A stretch of DNA of 61,352 bases, filler included, from Nemertoderma westbladi (Eukaryota > Animalia > Xenacoelomorpha), in assembly GCA_032718475.1 (NCBI GenBank). It is 3 parts of 3 records of this genome, joined end to end, with 100 filler letters (N's around TTAATTAATTAA, not from the genome) between each part and the next. Parts side by side here need not be neighbours in the genome. Positions count along the whole stretch, not along the records: positions 25,609 to 47,011 come from JAUCBJ010008066.1; 2 more parts are not named here. One strand, written 5' to 3'. Positions 18,075 through 60,281 of this stretch are shown in pieces (positions within the stretch are counted from its first letter, which is position 1; each line of letters begins with the position of its first letter). The notes beneath the pieces are model-generated. The model ran no database searches and was not told where the DNA came from. It worked only from the letters and a program-made list of their open reading frames with translations. Both the position numbers and the translations under genes were made by a program.

Positions 18075-18124
18075 GGAGATTCAGCCTATCGCGCTCGGAA
18101 CAGCGACAACGATTACATCCTGGA

Positions 18125-24122: not shown

Positions 24123-25508
24123 CCCTATTACCACTGGGGGGGGGGGGGGGGGGGGGGCGAAGCGGCCCCTTCCTAGTTTTTAGTTGCTGTAACTATGCAA
24201 CCACATTACGTACCGGCCCAATTTTTTGTGAGAATTAGCCAAATTTAATGCCGCATCTTTTGCAAAAAACGCCGTTGCAATTGGATTTCTACTTTTCGAT
24301 GTGGGTGCCACCTCAAAATTTGGTCTCCAGCACCAAATTTTTTGAAATTTTCGAATTTTACAAAGTAATTCGTGATTTAGTAATTATTTATGTTTGGGCT
24401 ATTTTTATTTATTTTTATTGGTTTGGATCACTCTAATGTTCTATACAAGTATGTAAGTGTAGTGGTACGTCATTTTTGGAGCACCAAAATTAGGGCGTGG
24501 CACTTCAAATTTTGAAAAATACGAGATTCGGAAAATACACTAAAGTTTTGATTTGCAAAGCATTTTTATAGGTTTTCTGGAGCGCTGCATCGTTTGAAAG
24601 TAATATAGAAGCCTGAAGACTTAGTGGTTCGCCATTTTTGGTGCACCAAAATTAGGGCGTGGTACTTCAAATTTCGAATACTTCAATACGAGATTCGGAA
24701 AATTCACTAAAGTTTTGATTTCAAATTAATTTTATAGTTTTTCTGGAGCGCTGAATCGATTGAAAGTAATATAGAAGCCTCAAATCCTTTGTGTACGTAA
24801 TTTTCGGTGCACCAAAATTAGGGCGTGGCACTTCAAATTTTCAAAATTACTTTATTCGGAAAAAACACTAAAGTTTTGATTTCAAAAAATGGCTAACTTC
24901 TAAGTCTTCAGGCTTCTATATTACTTTCAATCGATTCAGCGGTCTGGAAAACCTATATAAATACGTTAAAATTTCAATTTTGGTTAATTTTCCGAATCTC
25001 GTATTTTTTTAAATTTGAAGTGCCACGCCCTAATTTTGGTGCACCAAAAATGGCGAACCACTCAGTCTTCAGGCTTCTATATTACTTTCAATCGATTCAG
25101 CGGCCCAGAAAACCCATAAAAATGCGTTGAAATAAAAAAATTAGGCTCATTTTCTGAATATCTAATTTTTCAAAATTTGAAGTGCCACGCCCACTTCTTA
25201 GGTGCACGAAAAATAGCATCCACTTCAATTTTTGGAAGTGGAATATAATCACATTCGATTCAGCGTCTTGAAAAACCTACTAAATCTAGCCAACACTGCC
25301 ACACTATTAGTTTTTAGAAAACGAAAAATTTTGTAATTTTGTCCTGGGACTACTTTTATTTTTCATCAAAATTATGAGTCCCTGCTTATGAAATTTTAAC
25401 TTTTTAAGGTTTGGTAGTGTTCATCTATAGTTGTTTCACCAACAGCCCAAATTTTGTAGGATTTCATTGGACGACTACAAAAATATAGTGGGTGGGCCGA
25501 ATCGCCCC
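24123..25508. mobile_element. piggyBac-like non-autonomous element with internal ~170-180-bp direct and inverted repeats
   Basis: TTAA|CCCT start; gggcgaagcggccc vs gggccgaatcgcccc at the gap; attagggcgtgg.acttcaaatt x3 forward and x2 inverted; right end lost in gap. Confidence 0.7.
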
Positions 25509-25608: not shown

Positions 25609-28600
25609 TCAACACGTATCCTACTGCAGGACTGGTAGGTTGCTCGGTTGAATGGATTGGCGACAGCCGTGGTGAGTTGGCGATCGATTCGATATAATAG
25701 GGTAGTGTGGGGCTAGCCACACGATGAGAGGTTTGGGTACGCGAAGATGAATATGCTATGGTTGGTTGATGCAACGACGCGAACCAATACTGACGGGAGG
25801 TAACAGCTGTAGGAGTAAGGAGGGCATCGCGAGGTTAGGCTACGCGTAGGTGATACGCAGCGATTGGTTGAAGGCAACGACGCGAATCAATACTGTTGGT
25901 GACAGATGGTCATTAAACACCTCGATTTAGCACCGGAATTTGGCATTTTTTAATTGCCTCCGAGATGTGGCCCGTAGCCCAGGCTAGGGAGGAGTTAGCC
26001 GAGAACTATGCTTCTCCTACTACTGGCATCCAACACAAGCTTGGTTCCTTCACTATTAGGGCTAAGTCCCTCTAACCTTCTCCTCAACTCGTCATCACCT
26101 AAAAAAACGTTGATAGTCTGACAGATAGATGTCAATGGCATCCCTCTTATGCGGTTTCTCTGCCATCACTTCGCTCTCGGTTGTATCTAGTAGACTGTCT
26201 GACAGGTTCTGCTTTGCGTCAGACATGTTTGTTTATACAGTTGAATGCCTACTGCTATATTACAGTTAAAGCAAGTCTAGTAATTCAGTATTAACTGCTA
26301 GCCTAGTAATTAATTACCGATACTGCTACTCAGTGTAGCTTGATATATATAATATATTATAATACCGGTATGCTTATAGTATATATAACTATATAAGTAT
26401 TATTACAGACTAGGTTTATCACAGAATACCGGTATAATTTTAGCACAAATATATAAATATATAATAGGCCTATCGGGAATACCGGTATACAGCTTACAGT
26501 TTGTAGTATATATAATTCTGAACTAGAATAAATTACAAGTACCGGTATAATTTCAGCCTAAATTTATAGAAATAAAGATAATAGGCCTATCGTAAATACC
26601 GGTATATCAATTATTTTAAATAATTGAATTTCTGAATTTTAGAGTTACTTGGTTACTTTACTTACTTTATTACCGTTATTTGAGCAGTAATCCAACTGAT
26701 ATTGAGACCTAATGGTTGTATGGTAGGCCTACTATTTATAAATCGTTAGATTTGATTTATAATATATATATACCCGTTTTAATGGGTTTTGTCAATGTTT
26801 GAAATAAATGTTATTATTTCTAGGGAGTAATCACTACACAAAGCGGTGCGCTTTCAGTGAAGTGTTACTTATAGGACACTAAAACAAATAATACTAATTT
26901 ACCTAAGTTACTTAATACTACAAATTACGTACAATTCGGGTGAGATTACAATCTCTAAGTAAACACAAAAAATTTACAAAAACACAAAATACGAATTTTC
27001 AGGGTAATTTTACAAGAAGTCTACAAACCAGCCTAACAAAAGGTTAGAAATCTGGTTATTACAACGGACAGGGTACTACGGTATTTGAAAATAATAAGTA
27101 GTAGTAAGTACACTGCGTTGTCCAGATAGGAAAATACCACCGCCTGACGACCTATAGCCGTATCGCTACAGGTACTACGTTATGTATCACGGAGTGTTCC
27201 TACCTAGAAGTTAATAGAGCTAATCGAACGTGCCTATCAACCACTTTACAACACGAATGTAATGCCTACTAATTACTTTCGGAAAGCACTGTACACTAAA
27301 CCCTAAATTAGGTACGAGTACTTGTATAACATATAATCTGTAGTTAAATATACTTGAACAGCTAAAAGAACCACGGCATCTGCTGGAGTGACCGATGCAC
27401 AAAATCACCAGTCTTTACCTACGCCAAGCAGCCCGTGTAGTACCGGGGTTAATTTAACTATAGCGGTATGTATAACAAACACAATTACTGTAGGAACAAA
27501 CTTGGGGAATGAATGTTGCGAATAATCGCATAAACTCTGAATAATAAATATTACGCTACGCGTACAAACCACTCAAACAAAATGCAGACCAAACACTGAC
27601 AGACTACTATCAAGCCTAAACAAACTACGGTATATGTAGACTCCGAAATGGTTAAGTAGTATGCGTTCTAACCCAGTAGTACGACTTATTCTTTAGATGG
27701 GGGTTTACCTTACAGCTTTTGCTGCCCCTACTTCCTAACCGTTCTTTATCGGACAGATGCTTTACACACACTGAAATTTCCTCAAACCCAACAGCAGCCA
27801 GACAACTATCCAGCCTACAAATTATCTAAATAAATTATACGCTACCTGTACAGACTACACAAACAAAGTACAGACTCAACGATGGCAGACTACTCTCAAG
27901 CCTAAATAAACTACAGGACATGCAGACTCCGAAATAATTAGGTAGTATGCGTTCTAACCCAGTAGTACGACTTATTCTTTAGTTGGGGGTTTACCTTACA
28001 GTATTTGCTGCCCCTACTTCCTAACCGTTCTTTATCGGACAGGTGATCTACACGCACTGCAATCCGTTCAGACTTAACAACAATCAGACAACAGCTCAGC
28101 CTACAAATTGTCTGTACAATCTGATCAGGCTTACACGCCTTCTGTTCAATACTGGCCTACAACAAATAAAACTTGACAGAAATAAGTAAAAATCTCAATA
28201 AAAAACCAGGGCGGCCGTTCCCTGATTAAGTACTAAGACCTACCGGTATATAACTATCAAATTCGAATAATACTAATGTACTTATACTGGAAGTACCGGT
28301 TAGGACAGTTGGGCCTACTGACCTACAGATGTACCATTCAGGTTTACCGGTTGACCGGTACTTTCAACTTTATTGCTTACCGCAATAAAGAAGCATATAT
28401 CCGTTATTGTTCGCGCTTTCAGACCTTTGGCAGTTTAACCCGCCAAATTAGGATGTCTTCTAGATAATAAATCACCTTTAGCCTATGACAAGTATTTAAT
28501 TCACTACACTAGTCGAAACCAATCTGTGCGCGATCATTCACCCGCTGGATATACCCGGGAGATTGGGTTCGACGGCTTAATTTTATTGCTATGTAAGCCT

Positions 28601-29605
28601 AATGTATTATTCGACTGACAGTATTATATAATCTCTGACAATATTATTCACCTTCGGGGAATATTAACAGTTCCTTTAGGACGTGGCGCTCTATCTATAC
28701 AAACAGAGTTATGACTTAAACTACTCACAACGATATGGCTTAGTTATAATTCACATATATGGCGCATTCTTTAGGAAATGCTTCGTTATCAGTCTCACTC
28801 ATACACAATGCTGCACAATACTGCACACTAATCTGCCGATCTTCACTGATTTTAGTCACATATAAAAGGAACACGGACCGAATCATGTAGGGTCTATCAA
28901 ATAACATTAGATTCACTTCAAACCACTTTAACATAAGTCACAATTGTTATATGTAACCCTTCTCTCTTACCTTCGGTATATCAAGAATATTGGGTTTCGG
29001 GGTTATTTACCGTTATTCCAAATATAATAATTCATCAACCATATTATGAAGAACTGACAGTAAATAGCAGTATAACAATATAAAGTATGCACAGGTTGTT
29101 CGATTAGGTATGGTATGTTATGTTGTGATAAATGCAGATAACGGATATATGTCCTTATAATTAAGCCTACTAGTGTAGGGCTAAAGCCGTTCTTCCTGGC
29201 TTAGAATCACCAACAACACTAAAAACTGAAAAAGAATAACTATAAGAATACCAGCTACCCTTATTCTACAAAGATCTCATCCACCACAGAGAATGAGCAT
29301 ACAGATAGGAAATTCAGTTCAGTAGATCTGTGATAGGTCAAAATCAAAACCAACTCAAATCCTATTGGCAGATACAGAAAGCAGGGCTTATGGGGCAACG
29401 TGGCAATATCAGCCGTTAGCCGTCGTCATGGTAGCGACACTGTTTTCAAGAGTATAAATCCTCTAAAGTACAAATACAGAAGAAATGGCTTTTATGTCCT
29501 CCAAAACACCAGTACAGCAAGGACACGGCCTTTTTATGCCTGGTAAACCAACCACAGAGTACTTTACGGGGATAATAACCGGCTAATTACGCAAAAGCTT
29601 TTACA
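25609..29605 (-). mobile_element. BEL/Pao family copy 2 (5' LTR, leader and degenerate ORF start; cut by gap)
   Basis: LTR 28408-29605 (TGTAAAAGC...GCGCGAACA on minus); 26050-28400 collinear with copy 1 leader and ORF start. Confidence 0.9.
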
Positions 29606-30230
29606 GCTTGACCCCATTGTTTATATCGTATTGGGGCTGTTAAATGCCTATGTACCGTGTATTAATTGTATTGTATACCTTGGAGTCGTTGTTGAAGCTT
29701 GGCCCCATTGTTTATATCGTATTGGGGCTGTTAAATGCCTATGTACCGTGTATTAATTGTATTGTATACCTTGGAGTCGTTGTTGAAGCTTGACCCCATT
29801 GTTTATATCGTATTGGGGCTGTTAAATGCCTATGTACCGTGTATTAATTGTATTGTATACCTTGGAGTCGTTGTTGAAGCTTGACCCCATTGTTTATATC
29901 GTATTGGGGCTGTTAAATGCCTATGTACCGTGTATTAATTGTATTGTATACCTTGGAGTCGTTGTTGAAGCTTGACCCCATTGTTTATATCGTATTGGGG
30001 CTGTTAAATGCCTATGTACCGTGTATTAATTGTATTGTATACCTTGGAGTCGTTGTTGAAGCTTGACCCCATTGTTTATATCGTATTGGGGCTGTTAAAT
30101 GCCTATGTACCGTGTATTAATTGCATTGTATACCTTGGAGTCGTTGTTGAAGCTTGACCCCATTGTTTATATCGTAGTGGTGCTGTTAAACGCCTACCGT
30201 GTATTAATTGCATTGTATACCTTGAAAACA
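29606..30230 (+). repeat. 91-bp tandem array, ~7 copies
   Basis: gcttgaccccattgtttatatcgtattgggg... starting at 29606, 29697, 29788, 29879, 29970, 30061, 30152. Confidence 0.95.
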
Positions 30231-31164
30231 TTATAGAAGCTTGGCATGTTGCTGTCCCATTGTTTATCACACTTATAGTGTATACCTCGAACATATAATA
30301 TCTATAATGAGCTAAAACTGTCTACCTTGGTATAAAAATGTCTACCTTGGAACGAACAAACTCTTTCACTTCCAAGGGATACAAATTCCAAGGGATACCG
30401 TCTTATACCAAGGTATACCAATATACTGCAGTATCATAGAAACGGGAAGGGCAGCGACAATTTATCTTAGCCAACACAAAGGGCTCTATAGAAGTAATTA
30501 AAATTGTAAGTGCCGATATAAACCCGTTCGTTTGTAGAAAATGACAGGCAGTCAAAGTTATGTTCCAAGGGTATACATATTTATCCAAAATCGTATCCTA
30601 CCCTCCTTAAACAGATTGTGTGGTCAAATTGCAGGAAGTAGGAGGGTCGAATAGATATAATTTGGGAAGCAGAATCAATACTCATTACAATAAATGTTTA
30701 TTTGGCGGCATTCCGACACCATGTAGACAGTCTGTAGATGTTGTTTATACACCATTTTTTTAAAGAAAAAAGTGAAATTCTATATAGTTTGTTATGCTAG
30801 ACGTTGTTTTAAGCCATGGGTCATGTTTATGTGCCCTTTGTGATTAAATGAAGAAGCAACGTCCACTCTATCGATTGGTATATAATATTGGCCAAGATAT
30901 TCAAGTCATATTTTTGTATGGCAGCTTATTTCATGGGGACTATATTTTGCAACGCCCAAGGTAGACACCAAGGTATACATTTTTATGACTTGACTTCTTG
31001 TAGTGAAAATACAATATTAGTGTGCAACTCAGATTTTATCTATGTTGTAGAGCTCGCTCTAATCTTCCAAACGAGCCATCAACCATTAAAATCGGTTGAT
31101 GTAAACTGGATTTATAAGCAAAAGTGTGAATTTGCAAAAATGTGCCATCCTTACTGACCAATGA

Positions 31165-31998: not shown

Positions 31999-32463
31999 TT
32001 ACGTGACCCATTTGAGACAACGCGTGTCTCTATGTGTACCCAGACACCGAACCGAGCAGTACCTAGCGCCACACGGCACGCATGTATAAGTAGAAGGGAA
32101 CCCGCAAACCGCGCAAAACTTACGCGCGGGCAGTTGTGAGGGGCGCGCCGCGGCCGTGAAGTAATTTGGTCTCGTTTCCTTGGTAACCGAATACTCTTCG
32201 TCGAGTAGTTGGGCCAGGGTCTTACGGAAACGCTGTTTAAAGTGGTCGGATCTTGTCACCTTTTTCCGACGTCCGCCCAGTTTCGGGCTGCCACTGTCCG
32301 CCGTTGGTTCCGCGAATTTATTGTTTTTTACGCCGCCGTTTTGTTTAGCGCCACCTCCTGGTTCTTCGTGGTAATTATCCCGCTCTAGGTCGGCCAGCTG
32401 ACGGTTCTGTCGGCGTTTCCGTGACAACGTGTCCAGTACCTGTCCGGGTCGACGCGATTCCAT
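31999..32463 (-). CDS. ZNHIT1: Zinc finger HIT domain protein 1 (Vps71/SWC6, SRCAP complex)
   Basis: LERDNYHEE, FKQRFRKT, PNYFTAAARPS.LPARKFCAVCGFPSTYTCVPCGARYCSVRCLGTHRDTRCLKW; complete single-exon ORF. Confidence 0.96.
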   Translation of the reverse strand: MESRRPGQVLDTLSRKRRQNRQLADLERDNYHEEPGGGAKQNGGVKNNKFAEPTADSGSPKLGGRRKKVTRSDHFKQRFRKTLAQLLDEEYSVTKETRPNYFTAAARPSQLPARKFCAVCGFPSTYTCVPCGARYCSVRCLGTHRDTRCLKWVT

Positions 32464-32599
32464 TTCGTATTTTCGTGGGTACCGTTGTTATGGCGCGAAA
32501 ACGATAAACCTTACCGGTAGCGGTAGGGGATTCGAGAATGTTAAGAGGGAAATGCAGAAATGTACAATCCTGCAATCTCGAGCAGAAAGGCCACAGCTG

Positions 32600-32870
32600 C
32601 AGGGTATAACTTTTCGCCGTATCCGTATGCATTTGCCGTATCCGTATACGCATACACGTATGTGCGTATGTAATGGATTCCTATGGAGAATAATCCGTAT
32701 GTGATTTTAAAGATTAGGCATTGCGCACCAGTAAGAAGTGCACAGCACACATGCAGACTGAAGACAGGTAGGCCTACTTAAAAGCGATATGATTTAAAGA
32801 TTGCGGCTGCCGCTACCTAAGTACCTAACTGCCTAATGGCAAATAAATATTGTAGGTCCAGGATGAGTGA
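32600..32870. repeat. Dispersed ~310-bp repeat, interrupted by the LINE
   Basis: Reverse-complement copies at 53538-53850 (uninterrupted) and 38000-38113 (partial). Confidence 0.85.
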
Positions 32871-35720
32871 CTACTACTACTACTAGGATCGGCATGCTGC
32901 ATTGCAGCTGCATTTTTAAGAATGCTGTGCCGGCTTATCGACAAAATCGCACCGCCACAACTCCCTATCACCCATGACATTTGCTAGATCATCCGCATCT
33001 TCAAGGCCAGTGTCCTTTAAGATGCGTCTCAAGAAAGTCATGGGTTGTCCACCATGCTTATTCACTCCATGAGGCTGCCAAAGTACAAGATTATGCACTG
33101 GCTGGTCCTCACGGCGAAAGCAATGTCCTGCAAAGCGGAGCCGATTTTGTTCTAGTGTCAAGCTTGGGGGAACCAATGAGACACCTCCAATGTTATATAG
33201 TGTCTGGTTGGAGATGTGTGCATTGTACTTGACACAATGTACCCGGCGTAGCATTCTTGTGAATGTGCCATCCAGAGATTTGGTGTCCTCAGCAGTTAGA
33301 GCCCAGCATGGACTCCCGTAGAGGAGTACTGGAACTACTGCTGCTCTAAATAACCGGACCTTAAGTTTCCGATTAATTCTAGGTGACTTCCAAATCCTGG
33401 AAAGCCTATTCAAGGCTGCCCATGCCTTTCCCTTACGTATTCGAAGGTCCTCACCTGACTTCCGGATCCATGATCCCAGGTAACAGAAGTCGTCCACATG
33501 CTCAAGCATACCATCCTTTGAGCTTATGCTCATCCGATCAGAGACTTGCTGAGGACTTTCAAAGTTAACTGTCAGAATTTTGGTCTTTCTGGAGTTAATA
33601 AAAAGACCAACACTAGAAGCAGCATGTTCTAATGAGCTGAGGAGCCGCTGGGCTCCCTCTAATGATTCTGAGAGTACTCCTAAGTCATCAGCAAAGTCTA
33701 GATCAGTTAGGTACTTGGCAGGATTTCCTCGACTTCTGGAGCCAGTAGGTGGAGTTATCATCACCCCATCATCATTATGATGATCTAAGGACATGCGTAG
33801 AACATAGTCAACCACAATAATGAACAAGAATGGTGCAAGTGTGTCTCCTTGGAGGACGCCCCATAACACTTCAAATGGTTCTGTGTCACCGTCAACAGTA
33901 GACACAAATGTTGTTGAACCATCGTATACTGATCTGATTGCTGCAATAATTTCATCAGGAATCCCATATAATGAAAGTATGCTGAACATACGTGAGCGAG
34001 AGACTGAATCAAAGGCCTTGAAGAAGTCAACAAAGATAACAGCCAGATGCCTGTCTTTCTTTTTTGATAACTCTTCAATTATCCTTCTAAGTGCCAAAAT
34101 GGGCTCCATGGTCCCACGACCTTTACGGAACCCATTCTGATTTCCACGTAGCAGTCTCTCAATGGGATCCCTGATGCGATTTAATAGAATTCTATTGTAT
34201 AGTTTTGCAGCAATCGAGATCAATGAGATTCCCCGAAAAGAACCATAGAGTGTTAGGTTGCCTTTCTTGGGAACTGGCACCAACTTATTTGTTTTCATTT
34301 CTTGTGGGACTCTTGTTGTACGGTACATGTCTACTATGATGGGATAGATGAGCTCTAAACACTCAGGTATTTTAAAGACCTCAGGGGGAACACCATCTAC
34401 TCCACTGGCACGATTGGTCTTAATGCTCTTTGCAGCAGCATTCACTTCTGCAAAGGAGATATCGCCAATGGGAATATCTGGGAGTACAGACTCAGACACT
34501 TTTACTTCTATAAAGTTATCAGGCAATACCCTGTCATTATTGAGGAGCTTTTCAAAGTGGGCTTTCCAACCATTGAGGCGATCGGCTGGTGATTCAGCCT
34601 TAACCTTGGTGGTTGGTTGGCTTTTCCGCCCAGTAAGCAGATTGATCGATTTCCATGCCTGGGATGATTGCCTGCTGTCGTCAGCATCATTGATGGCATC
34701 AACCTGTTGGTTTATTAGCTCCTGTAGATTAACAGAGTACTGCCTGTTCAGGGACCTAGATGCAGCTTTAACTGCATTCTTGGCCGCTGTAGTCTGTTTG
34801 AGTCGGGACTCTTTCTGCGCCTTATGAAGGTCATTTCGGCACTTCTGAATTTTGTTGTCAGTCCAGGGGGCCCTTTTCCTGTTTCGAGGGTATACAGGAA
34901 CTGTTTCTGCAGCTGCTAACTTAACTGCTTCTGTAAAGGCAGTATAGCCCTCACAGTGATCTGCCGCCTCAGAGGCAAGAGCCTCATACCTGTTGCTCAG
35001 CTGTAGTGTGAAGCTGGATCTCACACTTGGCTGTTGCAACAGAGAGGACCAGTCATGCCGTGGCAAGGCAGATTTCGTTCTTCTGCTAGCACGCAGACTA
35101 AGTCTTACCTTGGCCACAATAAGGCGGTGATCACTGGAGAAGGGTCGAAGTGTAAATGCATTACAGTCTTGTATAGAGCTCCTGTATTTCCTACGAAACA
35201 GAATATGGTCTATCTGGGACTTGTGACCACTGGGTCCACTATGAGTCCATAGCTTTCCAGTTCGCTTCTTGAACTGGGTTCCAGCCGAAAACAATCCATT
35301 TCCAGAGATAAAATCCTGAAGATGGACAGAATTTCGGTTAACACTATTGCTATAGACCCAGGGTGATGTCGGTGATTGATGCAGACTTGCATTAAAGTCT
35401 CCCAGGAATGTTAAGAATGCATGCTGATCCACTCCATCAGTAGCTGCTTGTAGATTGTGGTAGAAATTTTCCACCTCCTCTACAGGGGCAACACTAGTTG
35501 GAGAGTAGCACACAATCAGAACCACCTTAGGAAACTTCTTAGCCAGTCTTCCAGAACATGAGAAGTGGCAACGGATGATGCGGTTAGAGATTTGGTCTAT
35601 TTTGTCCAATGCTGCATGTGCAGTTGGATTCATCAATAGACCAATTCCACCATTGCCACTATCATCTGCTGACGCGAGGGCGAGTCGCCAACCACCCCCC
35701 ATGTCCCTGACAGTGACAGA
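32871..35720 (-). mobile_element. RTE-type non-LTR retrotransposon, slightly 5'-truncated
   Basis: Uninterrupted APE+RT ORF, very short 3' UTR, (TAG)n tail. Confidence 0.92.
32916..35702 (-). CDS. APE endonuclease + reverse transcriptase
   Basis: YSPT, GDFNA, QIDHIL, SDHRL; QNGFRKGR, FVDFFKAFDS, GVLQGDTLAP, FADD, YLGS. Confidence 0.95.
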   Translation of the reverse strand: MGGGWRLALASADDSGNGGIGLLMNPTAHAALDKIDQISNRIIRCHFSCSGRLAKKFPKVVLIVCYSPTSVAPVEEVENFYHNLQAATDGVDQHAFLTFLGDFNASLHQSPTSPWVYSNSVNRNSVHLQDFISGNGLFSAGTQFKKRTGKLWTHSGPSGHKSQIDHILFRRKYRSSIQDCNAFTLRPFSSDHRLIVAKVRLSLRASRRTKSALPRHDWSSLLQQPSVRSSFTLQLSNRYEALASEAADHCEGYTAFTEAVKLAAAETVPVYPRNRKRAPWTDNKIQKCRNDLHKAQKESRLKQTTAAKNAVKAASRSLNRQYSVNLQELINQQVDAINDADDSRQSSQAWKSINLLTGRKSQPTTKVKAESPADRLNGWKAHFEKLLNNDRVLPDNFIEVKVSESVLPDIPIGDISFAEVNAAAKSIKTNRASGVDGVPPEVFKIPECLELIYPIIVDMYRTTRVPQEMKTNKLVPVPKKGNLTLYGSFRGISLISIAAKLYNRILLNRIRDPIERLLRGNQNGFRKGRGTMEPILALRRIIEELSKKKDRHLAVIFVDFFKAFDSVSRSRMFSILSLYGIPDEIIAAIRSVYDGSTTFVSTVDGDTEPFEVLWGVLQGDTLAPFLFIIVVDYVLRMSLDHHNDDGVMITPPTGSRSRGNPAKYLTDLDFADDLGVLSESLEGAQRLLSSLEHAASSVGLFINSRKTKILTVNFESPQQVSDRMSISSKDGMLEHVDDFCYLGSWIRKSGEDLRIRKGKAWAALNRLSRIWKSPRINRKLKVRLFRAAVVPVLLYGSPCWALTAEDTKSLDGTFTRMLRRVHCVKYNAHISNQTLYNIGGVSLVPPSLTLEQNRLRFAGHCFRREDQPVHNLVLWQPHGVNKHGGQPMTFLRRILKDTGLEDADDLANVMGDRELWRCDFVDKPAQHS

Positions 35721-37089
35721 TGATGTCCTTCAGCCCCGGGATGCACCACAGCGCTTGTTTTATTGTACTAACTAACTGACACCTGGCCGCCCGGTTGGAC
35801 TTAGATTAATTACTGGCACCCGGTTGCACTCGCTGACAAGTGGTTTGACTAACTAGCACTAGGTTGGACTTGTTGGCACTTGGTTGCATAGGGCCTGCTA
35901 TGGTTAACTAAATACTGGCCCCGAAACAGCGAAAGTAAAGGTACATACTGTATTATATTATATGTTAATAAATTCACAAAGACAGACACGACGGTTTTCA
36001 ATATCTGTGCGAATGTTTATTCCCGTAGCATTATCATTGCTGCTTCTACAGTACCGGTATCAGTCTATAGTCTATACTATGTTAGTGCCATATACTGCAG
36101 CAACCAACAACATTCTATATAGCCAGGTTCATTGAGGGATATATCTTTTTACAGAACACAGCAGAACACAGTAGAACACAGCAGAACACAATAGAATACA
36201 GGCGGAACATAGGCGAACACAGCTGTAATTAAAATGTACACCAAAAAATAACACACTTGGGGATAGTACCGGATTTATAGATATAGATAATATATATAAA
36301 TTGAAATGAATATACTAAAATAACTAACCTCTCTTTTGTGGTAGGTGTCAAGTCATTTGTTTGTATCATATCTGAGGTATCTTCAATGGCATCTGTAGAG
36401 GTAGTCATGGTAACCTGTGAAGGAGTGTTGTCTGAAATGCCATTTAGATGTCACTTGTTATTTTAAAGTGATTTGTAGTCACATCTTGATTGTTTTTTAT
36501 TGGCATAAATATTGTTATAAAGTTATTATTTTGAAACAGAGTGGAATGAGATTAAATTGATGAACAATAAAAATATTTCAAACATGGGTATATCTTTGGA
36601 ACCATATATCACCGTTATAACAAAACAGGTTTAGCTCTCAGTATACCAAAATTTTCCAAAACTAATATTCAATAAAATGTGGCAATTTGTTTTTAAAATA
36701 ATGGTATTGTTCTAGAATGGTAGCTATTTTTCTAAAACATGTCAGTTTTCATTTAACAGCGTTCCCATGGTAACAATAATTATATTCCAGAATTTTATGT
36801 CACATTTAGAATTGTTAGACCAGTAGCTATCTTTTTCAAAAGATGCGATGAATTTATATTATAATACTACAGCATGTTTGTTGTTTTACCATTTCCATGA
36901 CAACCGGTGATAACACCAAGTCAGCTACCGATTGAGATTTGTTATCATATCAAAATGAATGGCCAGAAGCTAGGTCTTCCCAAAAATATAAGTTCCGGGT
37001 GGTTACCAAAAAGTATCCCCTATGCTGGCTGGCCCATGGACTACAGTATATACTGAATAAGCGACATGGTTATTTTTACTGAACCTTCT

Positions 37090-37560: not shown

Positions 37561-38774
37561 TACAGAACTATTTACTCTACTCTGCCGTGCAATTACTAAC
37601 TCTATACTGTATAAAATATATTATAATTTTTAATTATTTTTACATTCTCAAATATGGTGCGTATATTTTATATTATATTATATTATATATATTTTACTTC
37701 GTTTGTCAAATAAATAATTCCAATTCCAATGCCTAATTAAGTTAAAAGGTAAGTGAGGATACGAGTGATGTGTGGGCGTGGGGTAAGAATGGTATGCTAT
37801 CTGCTTTACATGCTTACGATATATATCCGATACTCCGCTTCCTTATTGTATTTACATATAGTGCTTTTGTTGTCGCAATTGTCAACGGTGGCTGGTGTAA
37901 TGGGACTACCCGACTAGCCACCGACTACTTGATTAACTATTTTAATTAATCGCGTCAATTTATTAATTTGTAGTGAATTGTTTGATAAAAATAATAATAA
38001 TAATCTCTAAAATCACATACGGATTATTCTCCATAGGAATCCATTACATACGCGTATGTACATACGGATACGGTAAATGCATACGGATACGGATACGGCG
38101 AAAAGTTATACCCATAGCAGTAGTAGGGTCTTGGGCGGCTCTGCGACAGTTAGACCCAACTGACACCCATTGGGTGTCATATGACACCCAATTATCACCC
38201 TATGGGTGTCATTGGCGCCAGACTGTCTGGGTGACACCTCCCAATTAGGCTAATTAGACCCTAATTGAAAGGTGTCATCAATTAATTAGTACAATTAAAC
38301 CCTAACAGATGTCATATGACTCCTAATTAGGGTTTAATTGATTATCCTAATTAATCAGACTGATTAGCGCCCTGACACACAATGGGTCATCAGTGTTGTC
38401 TAACTGTCGCAGAGCCGACTCAAGAGGGTGTCATAAGTGACACCGCAGCCCTTTTTTTCATTAATACTTATTTATTTATATTTAATTTTAATTAATTATT
38501 TGTATTCTATTTTACTTTATTTATTCATTTGTACTTTATTTTAAATTAAATATTTGTATTACTTTTACTTTATACATTGATTTCTATTTTTAGATTAATT
38601 AGTTTTTATATTACCAACGAGATCACTATGACATAATGTCTATATTTAGCTCCATGGTTTATAGATCCCTTATCGTTAACTTTATAATCTTTCCTCTCGC
38701 GGCCCCTTTGTCTTCGTTATTCAATGGCGCCACTCTGTCTACCATTGAATAACATTGGGCAATCATTATCTCGC

Positions 38775-38880
38775 CTGATGTGACGTCATCAAAGCTGCTC
38801 TCTGATTGGTTTAATTATACAATCTTTTCTCCCTCCTGTTCCCTGATTGGCTAACCCATTCTAGCCCCCTCTATAATAGC
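38775..38880 (+). promoter_or_regulatory. Pol II promoter of the 569-aa ORF
   Basis: TGACGTCA (CRE) ~38781, two CTGATTGG (inverted CCAAT) ~38802 and ~38843, TATAATA ~38872. Confidence 0.65.
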
Positions 38881-38997
38881 CCCCGTTCACCACATTCCCA
38901 ATCATTGTCTCTTTGTTTTCCTGAAAAGTTTTAATTATTTTCGTAAAAGTATTTATTTATTTTTATTTCCTAAACGAGTTACCGGTACACAATCACG

Positions 38998-40707
38998 ATG
39001 GCACATTCAGAAATCAGCTATTCAAGCAACGATCTGGTTTGCAACGAAAATCAGTTTATGCTACAAGACAACTTGTTTGGTCTATATTTCGATTCGGCGA
39101 ACAAACTCTTCCCGTTAACGATAAATACAACCTTAAACCAACCCATCCCGATTCCGGCAAACTACGCGCACTTTATTTTCCGCGCCTGCTACGAACTTCA
39201 CGATGGACAATATCAAACCCTCGACGATAATAAACTTCATTCCTCCAACCACGGTTTCAAACTTTTAAAAAGGGACAACAAAATAACGTTCAATCTAACT
39301 ACTTCGCCTGAGACGTTTATGATTCCAACTAGCATAGTCGATTTTATTCGAGAAAACATCAACCAAGATGTGGCAAATCGTTTACTGGGTTTAACCACTC
39401 TCGTAACCTCCTTCTTCTCCGATGATCGCTTATTCGATTTTCATAGTATCGCAAACTCGATTCTTCTTCTCATCTGGAACTCGTCGACTCTGACCGAGGA
39501 AGAGGAGACTCGTTTCTTTAAACTTTTCGAGATTGATGTTCTCGCTTTCGGCGAGAAATTGAATGAGCTCACATGCATTTACGCCAATAAAGTCTCCTAT
39601 TACTTTGGATTCAATTATAGAGTTGGCACCTATGGAAGTATTAACCCAGTGAATCCACTCGAGTTAATAAAGCTGGAAGACACTGTAAACAGTTCATGGA
39701 TCACCTTTTCCGTCGCCTGCGCCAATTTATTTCAACAATATGTAAACATCTGTCGCCCTTTTATTAATCCTACTACTCACCTTGTCCTAAAACCGGGCAA
39801 TTGGGTTGCTTTTGACTATTGCACTTTTGGGTTTGTTACAAATATTCGGAACGAGCGCAATTTAGCGATCACCAATGGCTACAGGGTTGACGATGGAAAG
39901 GCTATTGTTTCTTCTAGGGGCATGATTCTTCTTACACCAAGCGAGGTCGGCGAATTGAAATGGTTCGTTGCAACCTTCGAGGATAGTGAATGTGTCTGCT
40001 ACGATGAACTTATCGTCTACAAAGACAACATTTCCGAGCGAATATCGATACAAAGTTGTATCAGTGATTCAGAAATTGATTTACAGATAACCGAGAGAAA
40101 ATTTAACGAATCCTTTACTATAGCTAACACGATTCAAGCGCGCGAGGCTCTAATCAGATTCAAGGCTATGGCTATACAATTTGCTTTCAAACCAAAGCAG
40201 ATTACGATCCCCAATCACCAACGCTATCTCATAAATAGCAGTATCGCAGCCTTTATCTATAAGTTCAAATCCGAAAAATATGTCGCTATCTGGCCCATTT
40301 TAATGAAAGACGAAGAGAATACCACTTTTCAGTTCACCAACGGTCTCAATATTAGGGGCAGCGATTTTCTCACGATAAATATAACCAACCCACCCAACTC
40401 TCACTACTATCTACGTCCTTACATTCATATCGAGAACAAACCAACAGAAATTATATTCACCAATACGAAAAATACCAACACTATCACCCTACCCAATGAC
40501 TTTACCATCGCGCGCCTTTTCAATTCACTAAAACGCTCTCTCAGAGAAGGCATCTTTCTCCCGCAGCAAACACACCTTAATCTATTTCAGCCCCCAAGAA
40601 AAGGTTATCTCAACAAACTATTAAAGAGAAAATTATCGCAGCCATTAATAGTATCGGACCCTAAAAGGGTTAAACCAGTTATTCTCGGAGGCCAGCAACC
40701 CTATTAA
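38998..40707 (+). CDS. Orphan 569-aa protein, possibly with tandem PC4-like ssDNA-binding domains and a C-terminal NLS
   Basis: Intact single-exon ORF; AATAAA at ~40725; FIYKFKSEKYVAIW..NGLNI and DDGKAIVSSRGMILLTPSEVGEL resemble PC4 by eye; KRK..PKRVK tail. Confidence 0.8.
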   Translation: MAHSEISYSSNDLVCNENQFMLQDNLFGLYFDSANKLFPLTINTTLNQPIPIPANYAHFIFRACYELHDGQYQTLDDNKLHSSNHGFKLLKRDNKITFNLTTSPETFMIPTSIVDFIRENINQDVANRLLGLTTLVTSFFSDDRLFDFHSIANSILLLIWNSSTLTEEEETRFFKLFEIDVLAFGEKLNELTCIYANKVSYYFGFNYRVGTYGSINPVNPLELIKLEDTVNSSWITFSVACANLFQQYVNICRPFINPTTHLVLKPGNWVAFDYCTFGFVTNIRNERNLAITNGYRVDDGKAIVSSRGMILLTPSEVGELKWFVATFEDSECVCYDELIVYKDNISERISIQSCISDSEIDLQITERKFNESFTIANTIQAREALIRFKAMAIQFAFKPKQITIPNHQRYLINSSIAAFIYKFKSEKYVAIWPILMKDEENTTFQFTNGLNIRGSDFLTINITNPPNSHYYLRPYIHIENKPTEIIFTNTKNTNTITLPNDFTIARLFNSLKRSLREGIFLPQQTHLNLFQPPRKGYLNKLLKRKLSQPLIVSDPKRVKPVILGGQQPY

Positions 40708-41094
40708 TATAAACAGTCTTTTTCAATAAAACTATTCTGATTATATCTTTTGTTAATGTTGATGTTCTTATATTATTTATTATTAATGTTGTTGGTAAAT
40801 TATTTATCTGATGTTGTTATATTATTTATTATTGATGTTGTCGGTAAATTATTTATTCTTGTTTCCCCATAATGTTTAAAAAATATACGATGCTTAACCG
40901 GCTATTTTTCATTTTTCTCTACTAGTTAATCTATACTATGAGAGCGAGCCATGAAATAAGTGAGTCTCAGCATACCATTAATGACCCCTACTGCTCGTTC
41001 ATAATCATTTTGAATGTTAACCCCTAAATAAACAGCCAATCCCTATGAATTCTTTACAAACTCGATATGCAAGTTGTTTATCAGAGTTGAATTT

Positions 41095-41461
41095 AGGCAC
41101 TGAGGCATAGACTATGACTCACTGAGGCATAGACTATGCCTCACTGGGGCACTGAGGCATAGACTATGCCTCACTGAGGCATAGACTATGACTCACTGAG
41201 GCATAGACTATGCCTCACTGGGGCACTAAGGCATAGACTATGGCTCACTGAGGCATAGACTATGCCTCACTGAGGCATAGACTATGCCTCACTGAGGCAC
41301 TGAGGCATAGTCTATGCCTCACTGAGGCACTGAGGCATAGTCTATGCCTCAGTGAGTCATAGTCTATGCCTCAGTGAGGCATAGTCTATGCCTCAGTGAG
41401 TCATAGTCTATGCCTCAGTGAGACATAGTCTATGCCTCAGTGCCTCAGTGAGGCATAGTCT
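41095..41461. repeat. Palindromic 22-bp repeat array with orientation switch
   Basis: (ACTGAGGCATAGACTATGCCTC)n changing to (GAGGCATAGTCTATGCCTCAGT)n. Confidence 0.95.
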
Positions 41462-41699
41462 GTGTCAGATCTTAAATGAGAGTCTTACAAATTCGAACGT
41501 CAACGAACAAATTCGAAGGTTACTGTTCCACCTTGGTGTAGTGGTTGCGTTGAATTCACTTCTCCCGTATGTCATGGGTTCGATCCTCACATGAACCAGG
41601 GCAGTTTTCGTTTGGTTAGCAATAGGCCTAACGTTGCAAAATGCAGTATTATTGCCTAGTAACCAATTCATGGCTATCGTATGGTTTTCACTTTAAGGC

Positions 41700-42352
41700 A
41701 TTTCGCCCTCTAGCGGCAGACTGGGGAACTTCAGACTACTCTGTGACTCTGCAAAAGATATAGCCTATGCCGTAGTAGATGGCGATTGGGGGGTCAAATT
41801 AGGTAATAATATATCTAAATAAGCCACAAACATCTTGCCTCATGGCTCGCCCCTTAGAACTCTTAAGCAATATAACTTCATAGTTTTGCGGATTGTAAAT
41901 AACAAAGCTAGAGAAGATGTAAATTTTTAAATAATACGCCCTCTAGCGGTAGACTGGAGAACTTCAGACTACTCTGTGACTCCGCAAAAGATATAGCCTA
42001 TGCCGTAGTAGATGGCGATTGGGGGGTCAAATTAAGTAATAATATATCTAAATAAGCCTCAAACATCTTGCCTCATGGCTCGCCCCTTAGAACCCTTAAG
42101 CAATATAACTTCATAGTTTTGCGGATTGTAAATAACAAAGCTAGAGAAGATGTTAATTTTTAAATAATACGCCATCTAGCGGTAGACAGGGGAACTTCAT
42201 ACTACTTTATGGCTCCGCAAAAGATATGGCCTAAGCCGTACTGTAGTAGATGCCTACCGAGTTTAAACCCATTCGGAATGAAAATAGCAAAGTTAGAGAA
42301 GATGTTAATTTCAGATCATACGCCCTCTAGCGGCAGACTATGGAACTGCAGA
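41700..42352 (+). repeat. 233-bp tandem repeat (two full units plus truncated units)
   Basis: gcc(c/a)tctagcgg at 41705, 41938, 42171, 42322. Confidence 0.9.
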
Positions 42353-45300
42353 CGGCTGGATATAGGTAAGAGTAATTAGTAATCAGAGCTGTCACGGGAT
42401 GGGGGGCGGGGCGCTTGGATACAACTATTATTATTAAGCTGTTGCTTGGTTAAAGCTAATTGGGGGTCAAAGGTCAAAGGTCAACGATAAAGCTGTCTGG
42501 AGTAATTAGTTACCAGTAAGGGAGCTGTATACCCTATGTCTAAGTATAACGAGATGAAAGTCCATGAGGTCATATAGAAACCAATATATAAAACTAATTA
42601 TTGGTAAATCTAAAATAAAGTACAATTAATTAATTAAAATTAAATATAAATAAATAGGTATTAATGAATAAAAGAGCCGCGGTGTCACTTATGACACCCT
42701 CTTGAGCCGGCTCTGCGACAGTTAGACAACACTGATGACCCACTGTGTGTCAGGGCGCTAATCAGTCTGATTAATTAGGATAATCAATTAAACCCTAATT
42801 AGGAGTCATATGACACCTGTTAGGGTTTAATTGTACTAATTAATTGATGACACCTGTCAATTAGGGTCTAATTAGCCTAATTGGGAGGTGTCACCCAGAC
42901 AGTCTGGCGCCAATGACACCCAATGACACCCATAGGGTGATAATTGGGTGTCATATGACACCCAATGGGTGTCAGTGTGGTCTAACTGTCGCAGAGCCGC
43001 CCAAGACCCTACTACTCACAGCTGCAGAGGTTGTCTGGTTGTTAGTACTGGTACCGGTACTGGCTGACTTCGTCTTTCCGTAAGCAGGGATGGAAAATAG
43101 GGTTTTACTTTTCAACGTATGCCGTACGTATCCACGTACAGTATGTGCGTACGTATCCACGTATCTATACATTTCATTGGGCGATTTGACATACGCGTAT
43201 GCATACGCGTATACTGTTTCCTGATTGGTCCAGATGAGATACGAGAGAAATGTATGCAAAACGCTTAGGCCTCAGTTAATTAGATTCGACACAGCCCATG
43301 GGACCGGTACATACAGTTTAATATGCTAAAAAGCCGAAACAACTGGAAACACATCACAGATACGATTTGGAATACAGTACTGTTCTCCAGTGGCAGTGGC
43401 GTTGCGTAGCGGGGGGGTGGGGGCGAGTCGACCCGGGCGCGCTCAGGCCAGATGGGGGCGAAAAATAAGCCGGAGCCAAGCAGCCAAGCTTTTAATACTG
43501 TACTGTATGTAATTTATGTATTGAAACCCGTTTTGTTGACCGCACGAAAAATGTTATTACACCCCACCAACGATTGTATATGGATACTCACATCGACTGT
43601 CAATATCTTCACCGAATTATTGTCTACTGTTGCTAGTTTCTTCCTCTCTCTTTCAATATACTGTATAAACAGTCCTAATAGTCGCCTCTTTCGGAATGGG
43701 CAGTAAATCACATAGGGTTTGGCAGCTTTTAACAATGCTATTACTGTAACTACCGTTATTTATATCTAGAGCCCAGGTCATAAATATTCATTTCAGAAAA
43801 TATATATATTTAATTTAGTAATTCAATTTATTAATGAAACAAAGTACCCAGCAAGACACATCCGGCTAATATCCGGATAATATCCAGCTAAACCGCGTTA
43901 AACCCCGCTAGCTTTGTTTTTGGCGTTTTAATATCCAGCTAATAGCTGGATAATAGTATCCGCCAATTCTCTGGAGAAAATAATCCACTAAATATCTGGA
44001 AAAAATCGTTGATCTAGCTTCACTTTAGCGTCGAATAAATGGACCTAATAAATCACGGGGTTTTAGCGTCAATTTAGCATGTAGAGAAGCTAAAACTAAC
44101 TGAGAGTAGCGGGATTTTAGCACCAATTTAGTCGCTAAATATACAGTACTTTTTACAAATTCCATATCATTTTACCAACAACTTGTCTCAAGAAGTTCCA
44201 AGAGGTTTCCACTGGCCAAGAACCTCCAAGAGGTGAAAATTTCCTCAAAGAGGGACCAAGAACCCTCAAGAGTGACCAACAGAGTTTTGCCTTCAAATCA
44301 AATCAGGAATGTCGAACTTTTCAGAAGATGATTCCTTCTTCTTGATTGGACATTGTGATTAAATTAATAGACAACATTTTTTTTACCGCACACTACTGCT
44401 GTATCAATATCGTTCCATATTGTTTGTGTATTATCAGATAATGTATTATTCTTTATTAATATGTTTCAAAACGTTTTCAGTTCCACACCACACTATGTTT
44501 AAAGGACGCCAATTTAAAAGTAATAATAATGAGCGAAAGTGGTAGTATCAAAACCATTAACCAACCCAAATATCCCCAATTCCTAAGAACTAGTAACCTT
44601 ATATAAGGGACTTTACAAGTGGGCTGTAAACATGACCTCATTAATGCGCCACTATCTGGCATCACAACATTATAAGCATAAAAAAATGTTAGGCAGTTTT
44701 ATACTTTGAGTTCTGTGTGCCACATGAACGAAGCCCCGCTTTAAACATTCTTGCCGCAACTATTGGAGACCCATGAGAAGAGTTGGCCAATAATTGTGCG
44801 AAGTTGGTAAAAGGATGGTGGACGGAGACGTGGGGGGGTTGTACTTGACACAAATCCCTCTCGGTGAATTAATATCTCGTCTCATTGTTAATTTATTATC
44901 AATAAATTAATGAAAAGGTATAGGATAGAGTGGCACTTTTCAAACGAAAACAATAAATTAAACTGAATAGCACTACATATCGTTACTTATTCAATTTTCA
45001 CCCATGATGTAATAATCTATGAGACAATGTTTAGATTAGGTACAACATATGCAGACATTACCAGTGAAATACCCCAATTTGACATTTTAAAATACTGTAA
45101 TGTACTGTAATAACTTTAATCACTACAGTAGCTGAACTAAATTAAATATGAACCAACACATTCAATAATGATGATCGTTCACTTTTCATTCACTTTTGTG
45201 TCCCTTTATTTATATCAACAATACTGTACTTCGAAAATACATATCCAGCGATTAGCGTGCTAATAGCGGGATGTACCATCCTGCGAATATCCCGCTATCT

Positions 45301-53540: not shown

Positions 53541-53850
53541 CCCGGGGCTGGGGGACACCGGCTATCACTCACCCTGGACTGGTCCTGCATTGTTTATTTG
53601 ACATAAGGTAGCGGCAGCCACACTCTTTTTAAATCACTTAGCTTTTTAAGTAGACCTACCTGTCTTCAGTCTGCATGTGTGTTGTGCACTTCTTACTGCT
53701 GTACTGGTCCGCAATGCCTAATCTCTAAAATCACATACGGATTATTCTCCATACAGCCATAGGAATCCATTACATACGGCACATATGCGTATGTACATAC
53801 GGATACGGCAAATGCATACGGATACGGATACGGCGAAAAGTTATACCCCA
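53538..53850. repeat. Uninterrupted copy of the dispersed ~310-bp repeat
   Basis: Reverse complement of 32600-32870 joined to ~35725-35745. Confidence 0.85.
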
Positions 53851-56874: not shown

Positions 56875-56983
56875 GTAGGTAGACCTAGTTCTCCTTGTAC
56901 AGTTGTAATGCTGTAATGTAATGCTGTCAGACTGTAATAGTCTGATAGACCTGTAGTCCTAGATTCTAGTCAAATACAGAAAT

Positions 56984-58921
56984 ATGCTCACAGCATTAAA
57001 GAAATTGGTAAAGACTGAGTCGGAAGGGGGTGTTGTAAGAGTCCCCGATGGGATTCGGTCAATGGGACACAATCTCCAGCGAAAGTTCGCCAAAGGAGTT
57101 CAATACAACATGAAAGTGATCATCAAAGGCGACAGAAACTCTGGTAAAACCTGTTTGTTCCATAGACTGCAAGGCGGTCGATTCAGCGAGGCTTACGAAG
57201 CAACCAACGAGATACAAGCTGGAGGGATCCAATGGGATTACAAGGCCACGGACGATGTAGTTAAAGTCGATGTTTGGGATGTAGTGGACAAGGGAAAGGG
57301 GAAGAAGAAGACCGATAATAAACTGAAACTCCTTAATGAGGAAACAGTGGAAGAGAATGTTGGAAAGGATGAAGGTGATCATTGTCTGGATGCGGAGTTC
57401 CTCGATGTTTATAAGGGTACCAACGGCGTCCTAATGATATTCGATATAACTAAACAATGGACCTTCGAGTACATAAAGCGGGAGCTACCAAGAGTTCCTA
57501 AACACATCCCGGTTCTTATTCTGGGTAACTGCAGAGACTTGGAGGAGAGCCGAGTCGTAAAGGAGTTCGACGTCCGTGTCTTTCTGGAGACGTTCGAGCG
57601 ATCTAAAGGCGCCGCCCCCGTTCTCTACACCGAGTCCTCCATGCGGAACGGGTTCGGGTTGAAGTATCTGTATAAGTTCCTCAACCTTCCGTTCCTTCAG
57701 CTGCAGCGGGAAACTCTGGTCAGACAACTGGAAACCAACACCGCGGAGATTCAGTCCACCATGACGGAACTCAGCACGTTGGGGGGCTGCGAGGAACAAA
57801 ACTACGATATGTATCTGGAAACGCTGCGAAACAGACGAGTTAGCCGACAGGCGGACAAACCGACTGACAAACCGACTGACAAACCGACCGACAAACAGGT
57901 GGACAGAGCGACGGAGGCCGTCCCGTCCGAGTCGATCCCGGCCCCCTCGACCCCCCGACGAGGGCCCCCCTCCCCCGGGATCGTCGATCAGCCCCCCGGA
58001 TCCGAGTTCCGTCGCCGATCGTTGGGCCAGCGACTCACCCGGTGGATCAGCAAGGATGGCGACACTGAACCGACACGTAGGAGACCGTCGGACAGACAGA
58101 CCGACACCGCGGCCGACGATAACATCGACACTTTCCTGTCGGCGTCGCCTCCGACAACCCCGCAGCCGGGCAGACAGACTGACCGACAAACGGACAGCGA
58201 TTCCGACGACCCGACCGCTATTAACCCCATGGTGGCGACTTTCTACGAAGACTTTGATTCCGATATGGAGATTAAAATACCCGCGGAAGCCCATCTAACG
58301 GACACCCACCGCCCTGCCCTGCTGATAGACTCAGACGACCCGCCGGTCTCCAACCGTTTGGTCCCGGTCCGTAACGATGCGCCCTCTAGCGACGACTCGG
58401 ACCCCCCGACCCGCCACATCCCACTGGCTCCCGTACCGGACAGTAACTCTCACAGACTGTCGGAGTACGAACTCCCAGAGGCGGAGCAACGTGCGAGCCA
58501 ATCAGCGTCTAGTAAACACGCGGTCCCAGCCAATCAGGAACTCGTGTTGGACTTTGCTGATCTCGACTTTCTTGAGGCGAAGGCGGGTCTAACTAAGTCG
58601 GATGTCCGACAGTCCGACAGCAGACAGGAACCGTCTGGATCCGCAGCCGACGAAGTGTCGGTAACAAAAAAGGTAAAGAAAAAATCGAGAAGTTCTATAG
58701 ATACGGACGGTGAGAAAAAGAAACATCGTAAGAAACACAGAGAGGTGGAGAGAGTTGAGGATGAGTCGGAGAAAGGCGAGAGGAGGAAAAGGGACGTCAA
58801 TAAAAAGTCGCACAGAAAGAAAAAACCTCCTGGGGAAACCGCGGTAAAACCTGAGAAAGTACCGGAAGTAGATGACCTGGAGTCATTCCTCACTGGAGTT
58901 AATGATTACGAGACGTTGTAG
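56984..58921 (+). CDS. RABL6: Rab-like protein 6 (RBEL1/PARF)
   Basis: LQRKFAKGVQYNMKVIIKGDRNSGKTCL, KATDDVVKVDVWDVVDKG, LDAEFLDVYK, NPMVA, Lys-rich tail ending DYETL; single exon. Confidence 0.96.
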   Translation: MLTALKKLVKTESEGGVVRVPDGIRSMGHNLQRKFAKGVQYNMKVIIKGDRNSGKTCLFHRLQGGRFSEAYEATNEIQAGGIQWDYKATDDVVKVDVWDVVDKGKGKKKTDNKLKLLNEETVEENVGKDEGDHCLDAEFLDVYKGTNGVLMIFDITKQWTFEYIKRELPRVPKHIPVLILGNCRDLEESRVVKEFDVRVFLETFERSKGAAPVLYTESSMRNGFGLKYLYKFLNLPFLQLQRETLVRQLETNTAEIQSTMTELSTLGGCEEQNYDMYLETLRNRRVSRQADKPTDKPTDKPTDKQVDRATEAVPSESIPAPSTPRRGPPSPGIVDQPPGSEFRRRSLGQRLTRWISKDGDTEPTRRRPSDRQTDTAADDNIDTFLSASPPTTPQPGRQTDRQTDSDSDDPTAINPMVATFYEDFDSDMEIKIPAEAHLTDTHRPALLIDSDDPPVSNRLVPVRNDAPSSDDSDPPTRHIPLAPVPDSNSHRLSEYELPEAEQRASQSASSKHAVPANQELVLDFADLDFLEAKAGLTKSDVRQSDSRQEPSGSAADEVSVTKKVKKKSRSSIDTDGEKKKHRKKHREVERVEDESEKGERRKRDVNKKSHRKKKPPGETAVKPEKVPEVDDLESFLTGVNDYETL

Positions 58922-59629: not shown

Positions 59630-60281
59630 CTGACAGCACCCAGTTACTAATCCAGCCGGCTGTACTTTCTGACAGCGCCCAGTTACTAATCCAGCCGGCT
59701 GTACTTTCTGACAGCACCCAGTTACTAATCGACCCGGCTGTACTTTCTGACAGCACCCAGTTACTAATCGACCCGGCTGTACTTTCTGGCAGCACCCAGT
59801 TACTAATCCACCCGGCTGTACTTTCTGACAGCACCCAGTTACTAATCCACCCGGATGTACTTTCTGACAGCACCCAGTTACTAATCGACCCGGCTGTACT
59901 TTCTGACAGCACCCAGTTACTAATCAACCCGGCTGTACTTTCTGACAGCACCCAGTTACTAATCCACCCGGATGTACTTTCTGACAGCACCCAGTTACTA
60001 ATCGACCCGGCTGTACTTTCTGACAGCACCCAGTTACTAATCGACCCGGCTGTACTTTCTGACAGCACCCAGTTACTAATCAACCCGGCTGTACTTTCTG
60101 ACAGCACCCAGTTACTAATCCACCCGGTTGTACTTTCTGACAGCACCCAGTTACTAATCCACCCGGCTGTACTTTCTGACAGCACCCAGTTACTAATCGA
60201 CCCGGCTGTACTTTCTGACAGCACCCAGTTACAATCCACCCGGCTGTACTTTCTGACAGCACCCAGTTACTAATCGACCCG
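59630..60281. repeat. 39-bp minisatellite, ~16-17 copies
   Basis: ctgacagcacccagttactaatc(g/c/a)acccggctgtacttt. Confidence 0.95.

Follow-up and report, generated by a model that had tools for sequence, protein, structure and literature searches.

How does an element that has the ends of a Polinton (Maverick) transposon, and none of its recognisable enzyme genes, come to carry a single intact gene of its own? The question is raised by a 4.9-kb element at positions 38119–43016 of a stretch of Nemertoderma westbladi DNA (assembly GCA_032718475.1); the whole analysed stretch of 61,352 nucleotides is referred to here as the window, and all coordinates are positions along it. The element is real and recently amplified, belongs to a known kind and carries a new, unclassified gene. 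It is probably a member of a repeat family that combines Polinton/Maverick-type ends with the absence of recognisable enzyme genes, and for which a full-length Polinton is likely to have supplied polymerase and integrase, and its gene is likely to be an accessory gene from beside the left end of the parent element. An initial annotation had described it as a satellite-like non-autonomous element. Its ends, its target site duplication (TSD) and its lack of core genes bear out the non-autonomous part, and a non-autonomous derivative is the safer reading, with satellite status a possibility. At the level of the family, the evidence is drawn from the window and the contigs of four public DNA runs representing three samples (X1 and X3, which share a sample, X2 and X4).

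Ends and insertion footprint

The element opens at 38119 with AGTAGTAGGG and closes at 43016 with the reverse complement of this sequence, giving the AGTAGT...ACTACT ends that the initial annotation had noted. The terminal inverted repeats (TIRs; Table 1), described there as about 400 bp long, match at 383 aligned positions (94% identity) and differ by 13 mismatches and one 10-base indel. The left TIR contains internal palindromes and eight copies of GGTGTCA, on either strand, and outward of the element ends the inverted repeat does not continue. When TSD lengths of 2–12 were tried on the flanks, 6 bp was the sole fit, with the one mismatch already recorded; agreement of 5/6 between random 6-mers of the window has a chance of 0.6%, a figure that concerns this one insertion only. 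A TSD around 94%-identical TIRs indicates a single insertion event.

Comparison with Polintons

Ends, TIR length and TSD length all agree with those given for Mavericks in PMC8097293. There, 5'-(AGT)2//(ACT)2-3' is the commonest end motif, with (AG)3//(CT)3 as an alternative, TIRs measure 402 ± 276 bp (mean; 46–1447 bp in vertebrates), TSDs are 6 bp and are left by a retroviral-like integrase, accessory regions flank the core, and end repeats have a role in protein-primed replication; no Polinton life cycle has been directly observed in an animal, and particles have not been seen, according to the same source. The element resembles autonomous Polintons (PMC8097293, PMC3014272, PMC6431247) in its (AGT)2//(ACT)2 ends, ~400-bp TIR and 6-bp TSD, and also in having an intronless open reading frame (ORF), an unassigned gene located beside an end, where accessory regions occur. 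It differs from them in size, at 4.9 kb compared with 12.7–24.6 kb in these sources and the 12–25 kb taken as a Polinton feature, in the far weaker constraint on its ORF than on their core genes, and in content: pPolB, integrase, packaging ATPase, protease, and major and minor capsid genes are undetectable. Polymerase, integrase, ATPase and capsid families had no match in the element and simple motifs typical of them were absent too, as the initial annotation had stated. Because the defining enzymes are missing, the element is not an autonomous Polinton; Polinton ends with the core enzymes absent are the mark of a non-autonomous derivative.

Non-autonomous Polintons are already known. The letter N in Repbase names denotes a non-autonomous family. 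PMC9341505 supplies one such name, Polinton-1N1_DR of zebrafish; butterfly polintons without polB are still mobile (bioRxiv 10.1101/2025.02.07.637071), Tlr1 is sometimes viewed as a non-autonomous Polinton (PMC5499653), and an apparent absence of non-autonomous Polintons from the anole is reported in PMC3014272, with further Polinton background in PMC6431247 and 10.64898/2026.10.13.758929. The present element is like the zebrafish and butterfly elements in combining Polinton ends with the absence of a replication enzyme and in being apparently amplified. The butterfly elements, however, retain other core genes and transposable-element cargo, whereas here there is no core gene and one unclassified ORF. 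Nematode Mavericks carry cargo comprising wasp proteases and krma kinases (bioRxiv 10.1101/2022.07.12.499685), which, like the gene described here, are non-core genes just inside the left TIR; they reside in complete or decayed full-size Mavericks, some with introns, and have known folds, whereas here the gene is alone, intronless and without an assigned fold.

Transpovirons (~7 kb, without virion genes) and Tlr1 are likewise small or reduced TIR-bounded relatives of Polintons, and encode a fusion of a superfamily 1 helicase with an inactive polymerase domain (PMC5499653). No such domain was detected in the element, which, unlike them, is integrated in an animal genome. As for other transposons with TSDs of this length, hAT ends are not known to be AGT repeats. 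The hAT6 group has 6-bp TSDs (PMC12730594), as does IS3EU/GingerRoot, with TA..TA ends (PMC10045372), from which the element differs in its AG..CT ends and in having no DDE transposase match. No description of a mini-Polinton with a single orphan gene was found in the literature searched, which was without supplements, Repbase and most subscription papers; what is new is the unclassified protein on an amplifying mini-element.

A single intact gene

The one intact ORF of the initial annotation encodes 569 amino acids (aa), the next longest stop-free frame inside the element being 101 codons. Its length is not a product of chance, because a 569-codon frame has a probability of ~5e-15 at the element's composition. 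Base use in the ORF varies with codon position, and the observed/expected ratio of CpG is 1.27, compared with 0.43 in a neighbouring long interspersed nuclear element (LINE). The ATG has A at −3 and G at +4. Upstream, a motif scan identified three inverted CCAAT boxes (38754, 38805 and 38846), TGACGTCA at 38781 and TATAA at 38872. The motifs behind the previously annotated promoter and poly(A) signal are present, and both features stand as predictions of function.

The 569-aa protein has no transmembrane-like or long hydrophobic stretch; its N-terminal and middle parts are acidic and its C-terminal part is basic, with a pattern at residues 543–559 of the basic tail that resembles a bipartite nuclear localization signal (NLS). 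Because it appears soluble, with a basic tail and an NLS-like pattern, the protein may be a nuclear accessory factor that aids the family of elements in its expression or persistence, a tentative assignment that we consider possible and somewhat doubtful.

Homology searches returned no credible relative. Pfam had no match to the whole protein or to four pieces of it, NCBIfam had none, and the best results from PHROGs (a single hit, E = 0.15), Protein Data Bank (PDB) sequences (E = 1.3) and phage records (E = 0.04) were not credible. The same was true of a 5.8-billion-protein search, among proteins of near and longer lengths, and of ESM Atlas searches with the whole protein and with residues 195–400 (best value, 0.76), and viral and metagenome contigs gave no match. 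Families and motifs of the DDE, HUH, helicase and polymerase types were likewise not found in the protein. Two hits among 1.84 billion representatives, both prokaryote-type repeat proteins, were rejected as artefacts because their scores sum 6–8 weak repeats, the best single pieces reaching 29 and 18 bits. AlphaFold2 run without an alignment gave a pLDDT of 30 both with the full-length sequence and with residues 201–391, making the models unusable; a Foldseek search with a pLDDT-30 model, which returned nothing at E ≤ 0.001, is uninformative given the quality of the model.

Copies of the gene and of the ends

Single ORF contigs in X2 have depths of 980–1104, compared with 38.5–38.7 for single-copy contigs (~25×); the corresponding excess is 31–57× in X1 and 3–4× in X4, all of these being ratios of single contigs only and a rough guide to copy number. 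The ORF is multi-copy, which rules out a single-copy accident as far as the gene is concerned. Long unbranched contigs (296–481 bases) at ORF depth in X2 argue that most ORF copies are near-identical and that amplification was recent. ORF copies that are ~12% diverged also occur in the runs, at single-copy depth (39660–39960). The window copy differs from the major form by ~1–3%; because the unique flank also differs between the window and the runs (four sites in 37823–37859), the window must derive from a somewhat different individual or population.

In X1–X3, but not in X4, the ends are more abundant than the gene, with a summed TIR depth several times that of the ORF, suggesting that many members of the family lack the gene and have shared ends with varied interiors. 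A second, diverged end copy in the window (Table 1) is followed by DNA unrelated to the interior of the 4.9-kb element, and this, together with the excess of TIR depth, points to a family of ends with varied interiors; no partner for the second copy (8754/20297) was found within the window. Two diverged contigs depart from the window sequence at 40984, which fits the presence of the gene in differently built elements as well. Two variants are common: a form without the predicted promoter segment, in which a short stretch replaces 38651–38880 (depth 815 in X1, 350 in X2 and 54 in X4), and a form lacking most of the basic tail, with its joint at 40561–40678 (depth 439 in X1, 334 in X2 and 2321 in X3). 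The recurrence that the initial annotation proposed as a check was confirmed for the ORF and the TIRs, each of which is multi-copy; the exact 4.9-kb unit probably recurs as well.

Selection on the gene

Selection was assessed over 39660–39960 (301 of the 1707 ORF bases). Five diverged contigs cover 260–301 of these bases, of which three show 36–37 differences and no gap, and the remaining two contain two gap letters each. From the best-supported 40 of 58 differences, four belonging to high- or mid-depth forms were set aside, leaving 16 synonymous and 20 non-synonymous changes and no stops. The expected synonymous share is 23–31%, with p values of 0.003, 0.011, 0.030 and 0.058 at transition biases of 1, 2, 4 and 8, respectively, the observed transition share being 64%. 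A rough dN/dS for these copies is 0.4–0.5.

The changes that set the window copy apart from the young major form appear neutral: 23 ORF sites were listed, spread 8/8/7 across codon positions, and amount to 5 synonymous and 16 non-synonymous codons, where 21% synonymous is the neutral expectation. The purifying selection that the initial annotation had suggested looking for was found, as a modest signal, among the diverged copies and not in the young form. The gene is real and has been under moderate constraint over its longer history, with modest purifying selection; in the young mini copies selection is likely to be weak or relaxed, with the gene partly hitchhiking, and the signal could stem from the time the gene spent in a full-length parent.

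Origin of the element

In the derivation that we favour, a full-length Polinton elsewhere in the genome would supply polymerase and integrase and would recognise the shared ends in trans, the repeated end motif being used by protein-primed replication. Loss of the core module would have produced the mini-element, its single gene being an accessory gene inherited from beside the parent's left end, and the interior would have gathered other repeats later. An accessory-gene leftover is the simplest origin because of the gene's position immediately inward of the left TIR, the place where cargo is found in nematode Mavericks.

Several results weigh against this derivation or parts of it. The ORF is without any homolog, so a Polinton origin of the gene stays conjectural, and a search of viral and metagenome contigs with a word shared by the TIRs, which might have pointed to the helper, gave no match. 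No contig in the four runs spans TIR, ORF and TIR, no TSDs were seen at other copies in the run contigs, and tandem or episomal DNA could contribute to contig depth, itself a rough measure of copy number. The differences used for the selection test, in less than a fifth of the ORF, were picked by support, and the 14 common to at least two X2 contigs include 5 that are synonymous, which is not significant (p = 0.19–0.44). The nuclear role was proposed from one pattern match, and the variant lacking most of the basic tail reaches about one-third of major-form depth in X2.

The element could instead be a true satellite, an old separate lineage that actively spreads by borrowing the polymerase, integrase and possibly capsid of its helper, and whose gene, a new family with its own promoter and insulator-like shielding, is under selection of its own to hijack or regulate the helper or to block silencing by the host. 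We consider this unlikely, though it has points in its favour: an intact ORF with a full set of predicted expression signals in a 4.9-kb unit, recent amplification that differs up to tenfold between samples, an excess of synonymous changes without stops among copies 12% apart, and the high CpG ratio of the ORF relative to the LINE. However, the changes separating the window copy from the major form are neutral-like, forms that lack the promoter segment or most of the basic tail occur commonly, and intactness says little, because at ~2% divergence, with 4% of changes creating stops, roughly a quarter of frames would be free of stops. Chance pairing of two ends, or a one-off deletion, around a gene that is multi-copy only in larger elements is the least probable of the explanations. 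The want of a contig covering the whole unit, the mismatch in the TSD and several sites at which none of the four runs contains the window's variant letters would fit it, but the matching 6-bp duplication and the 94%-identical TIRs point to one insertion, and no polymerase or capsid remnant lies inside, though a deletion may have followed the insertion.

Two further explanations turn on the nature of the protein. At 569 aa it is within the order of length of major capsid proteins, and its many predicted strands and basic tail would suit a capsid or other virion protein diverged past recognition, which would make the element a capsid-only mini-Polinton; this is very unlikely, given that there is no Pfam, PHROG, NCBIfam or PDB match and nothing credible among the 1.84 billion representatives. 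Maverick core genes are, moreover, strongly conserved, with omega ~0.001 in cyprinids (PMC8097293), compared with ~0.4–0.5 here. It is likewise very unlikely that the element is an autonomous DNA transposon from an undescribed superfamily whose transposase or replication protein is encoded by the ORF. A long ORF flanked by TIRs, with repeated subterminal words, is a cut-and-paste layout, and the gene is multi-copy, but the ends and TSD length are the Maverick signature, families and motifs of the DDE, HUH, helicase and polymerase types are absent, and the constraint is weak for a catalytic protein.

Associated repeats and genomic setting

Other repeats fill ~1.3 kb of the element's interior (41095–42353; Table 1). 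The palindromic minisatellite is foldable into a very long hairpin (z = −26.6, as expected of any inverted array), and its depth, far above that of the ORF and very high in X1–X3, assigns it to a more abundant repeat; every Rfam match within it was under the gathering score. One X4 contig links the minisatellite with the TIR region near 42974, and other members of the TIR family may therefore contain the minisatellite natively. The SINE-like (short interspersed nuclear element-like) head, which has very high depth in the runs, received no ARAGORN or Rfam call (fold z = −0.63). The 13-base motif of the 233-bp repeat appears to resemble the CTCF site, and a fifth near-copy lies at 58380. CTCF is conserved in most bilaterians, according to a published abstract. 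Dozens of contigs diverge into unrelated DNA at the edges of the short segment 41686–41736, which contains a copy of this CTCF-like motif, and of the repeats to 42353, which suggests that this segment is common to several repeat families. A small repeat found at 38001–38113, 32602–32818 and 53606–53848 has one end directly left of the element's target site, and a relative of it lies at ~43080–43230.

Table 1 Features of the element and of the second end copy in the window
Feature	Position	Strand	Remarks
Outer tip of second, diverged end copy (AGTAGTAGGG)	8754–8773	+	Split off by LTR retrotransposon
Body of second TIR copy	20297–20658	+	84% identical to left TIR
Left TSD copy, CATAGC	38113–38118		5/6 match to right copy
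Left TIR	38119–38514	+	Begins (AGT)2; 396 bp
Predicted RNA polymerase II promoter	38754–38880	+	Motif scan
Intronless ORF, 569 aa	38998–40707	+	Only long frame in element
Predicted poly(A) signal, AATAAA	40725–40730	+	18 bases past ORF stop; then T/GT-rich DNA
Palindromic minisatellite, 22-bp unit	41095–41464		Inverted array
tRNA-derived (SINE-like) head	41525–41605	+	A-box-like match only; possible, weak
233-bp tandem repeat, ~2.8 units	41704–42353	+	Four copies of 13-base motif
Right TIR	42611–43016	−	Finishes (ACT)2; 406 bp
Right TSD copy, CACAGC	43017–43022		5/6 match to left copy

The second end copy is interrupted by a long terminal repeat (LTR) retrotransposon of 11.5 kb (8774–20291), which sits 20 bases inside it, has identical LTRs of ~1.26 kb, is flanked by a 5-bp duplication, contains a DUF1759 domain and is likely to be of Bel/Pao type; a diverged, inverted relative occupies 26180–29082. 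Matches to AGTAGTAGGG at 204 and 2092–2101 and a near match at 26015 are without TIR similarity and were discarded as ends. An integrase fragment near the second TIR copy (21085–21702) was considered as a helper remnant and rejected. It carries rve and H2C2 domains, and after it come a polypurine tract and LTR-like DNA that starts with TG (~22190–22400); 21085–22400 is therefore read as a piece of a Gypsy-type retrotransposon.

The window is judged to be animal DNA: the best relatives of its RABL6-like gene are all animal proteins (≤63% identity), and it also carries many transposon pieces. The RABL6-like gene (56963–58921) and a HIT zinc-finger gene (31999–32487), presumably ZNHIT1-like, each consist of one uninterrupted frame and are apparently intronless. 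Two tandem tRNA-Asp(GTC) genes lie at 971–1044 and 1242–1315, and an apparently intact LINE frame of 937 codons, encoding endonuclease and reverse transcriptase, at 32916–35729 on the minus strand. Repeats at 24460–25224, 29605–30243 and 59630–60282 comprise a foldback-like repeat, which adjoins an assembly gap, together with two tandem arrays spaced at 91 bp and 39/78 bp.

Significance

A young, multi-copy mini-element possessing only the ends of a Polinton suggests that a TIR of ~400 bp suffices for an element to be copied and inserted in trans; copies of the mini-element seem to vary in number up to tenfold between samples. With no counterpart among billions of sequences, the protein would be the first of a new family of accessory proteins associated with Polintons. 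Should selection act on the gene within the mini-element itself, the system would be a satellite–helper pair in an animal germ line; if the gene only hitchhikes, the element would be an ordinary deletion derivative that has preserved an unannotated accessory gene.

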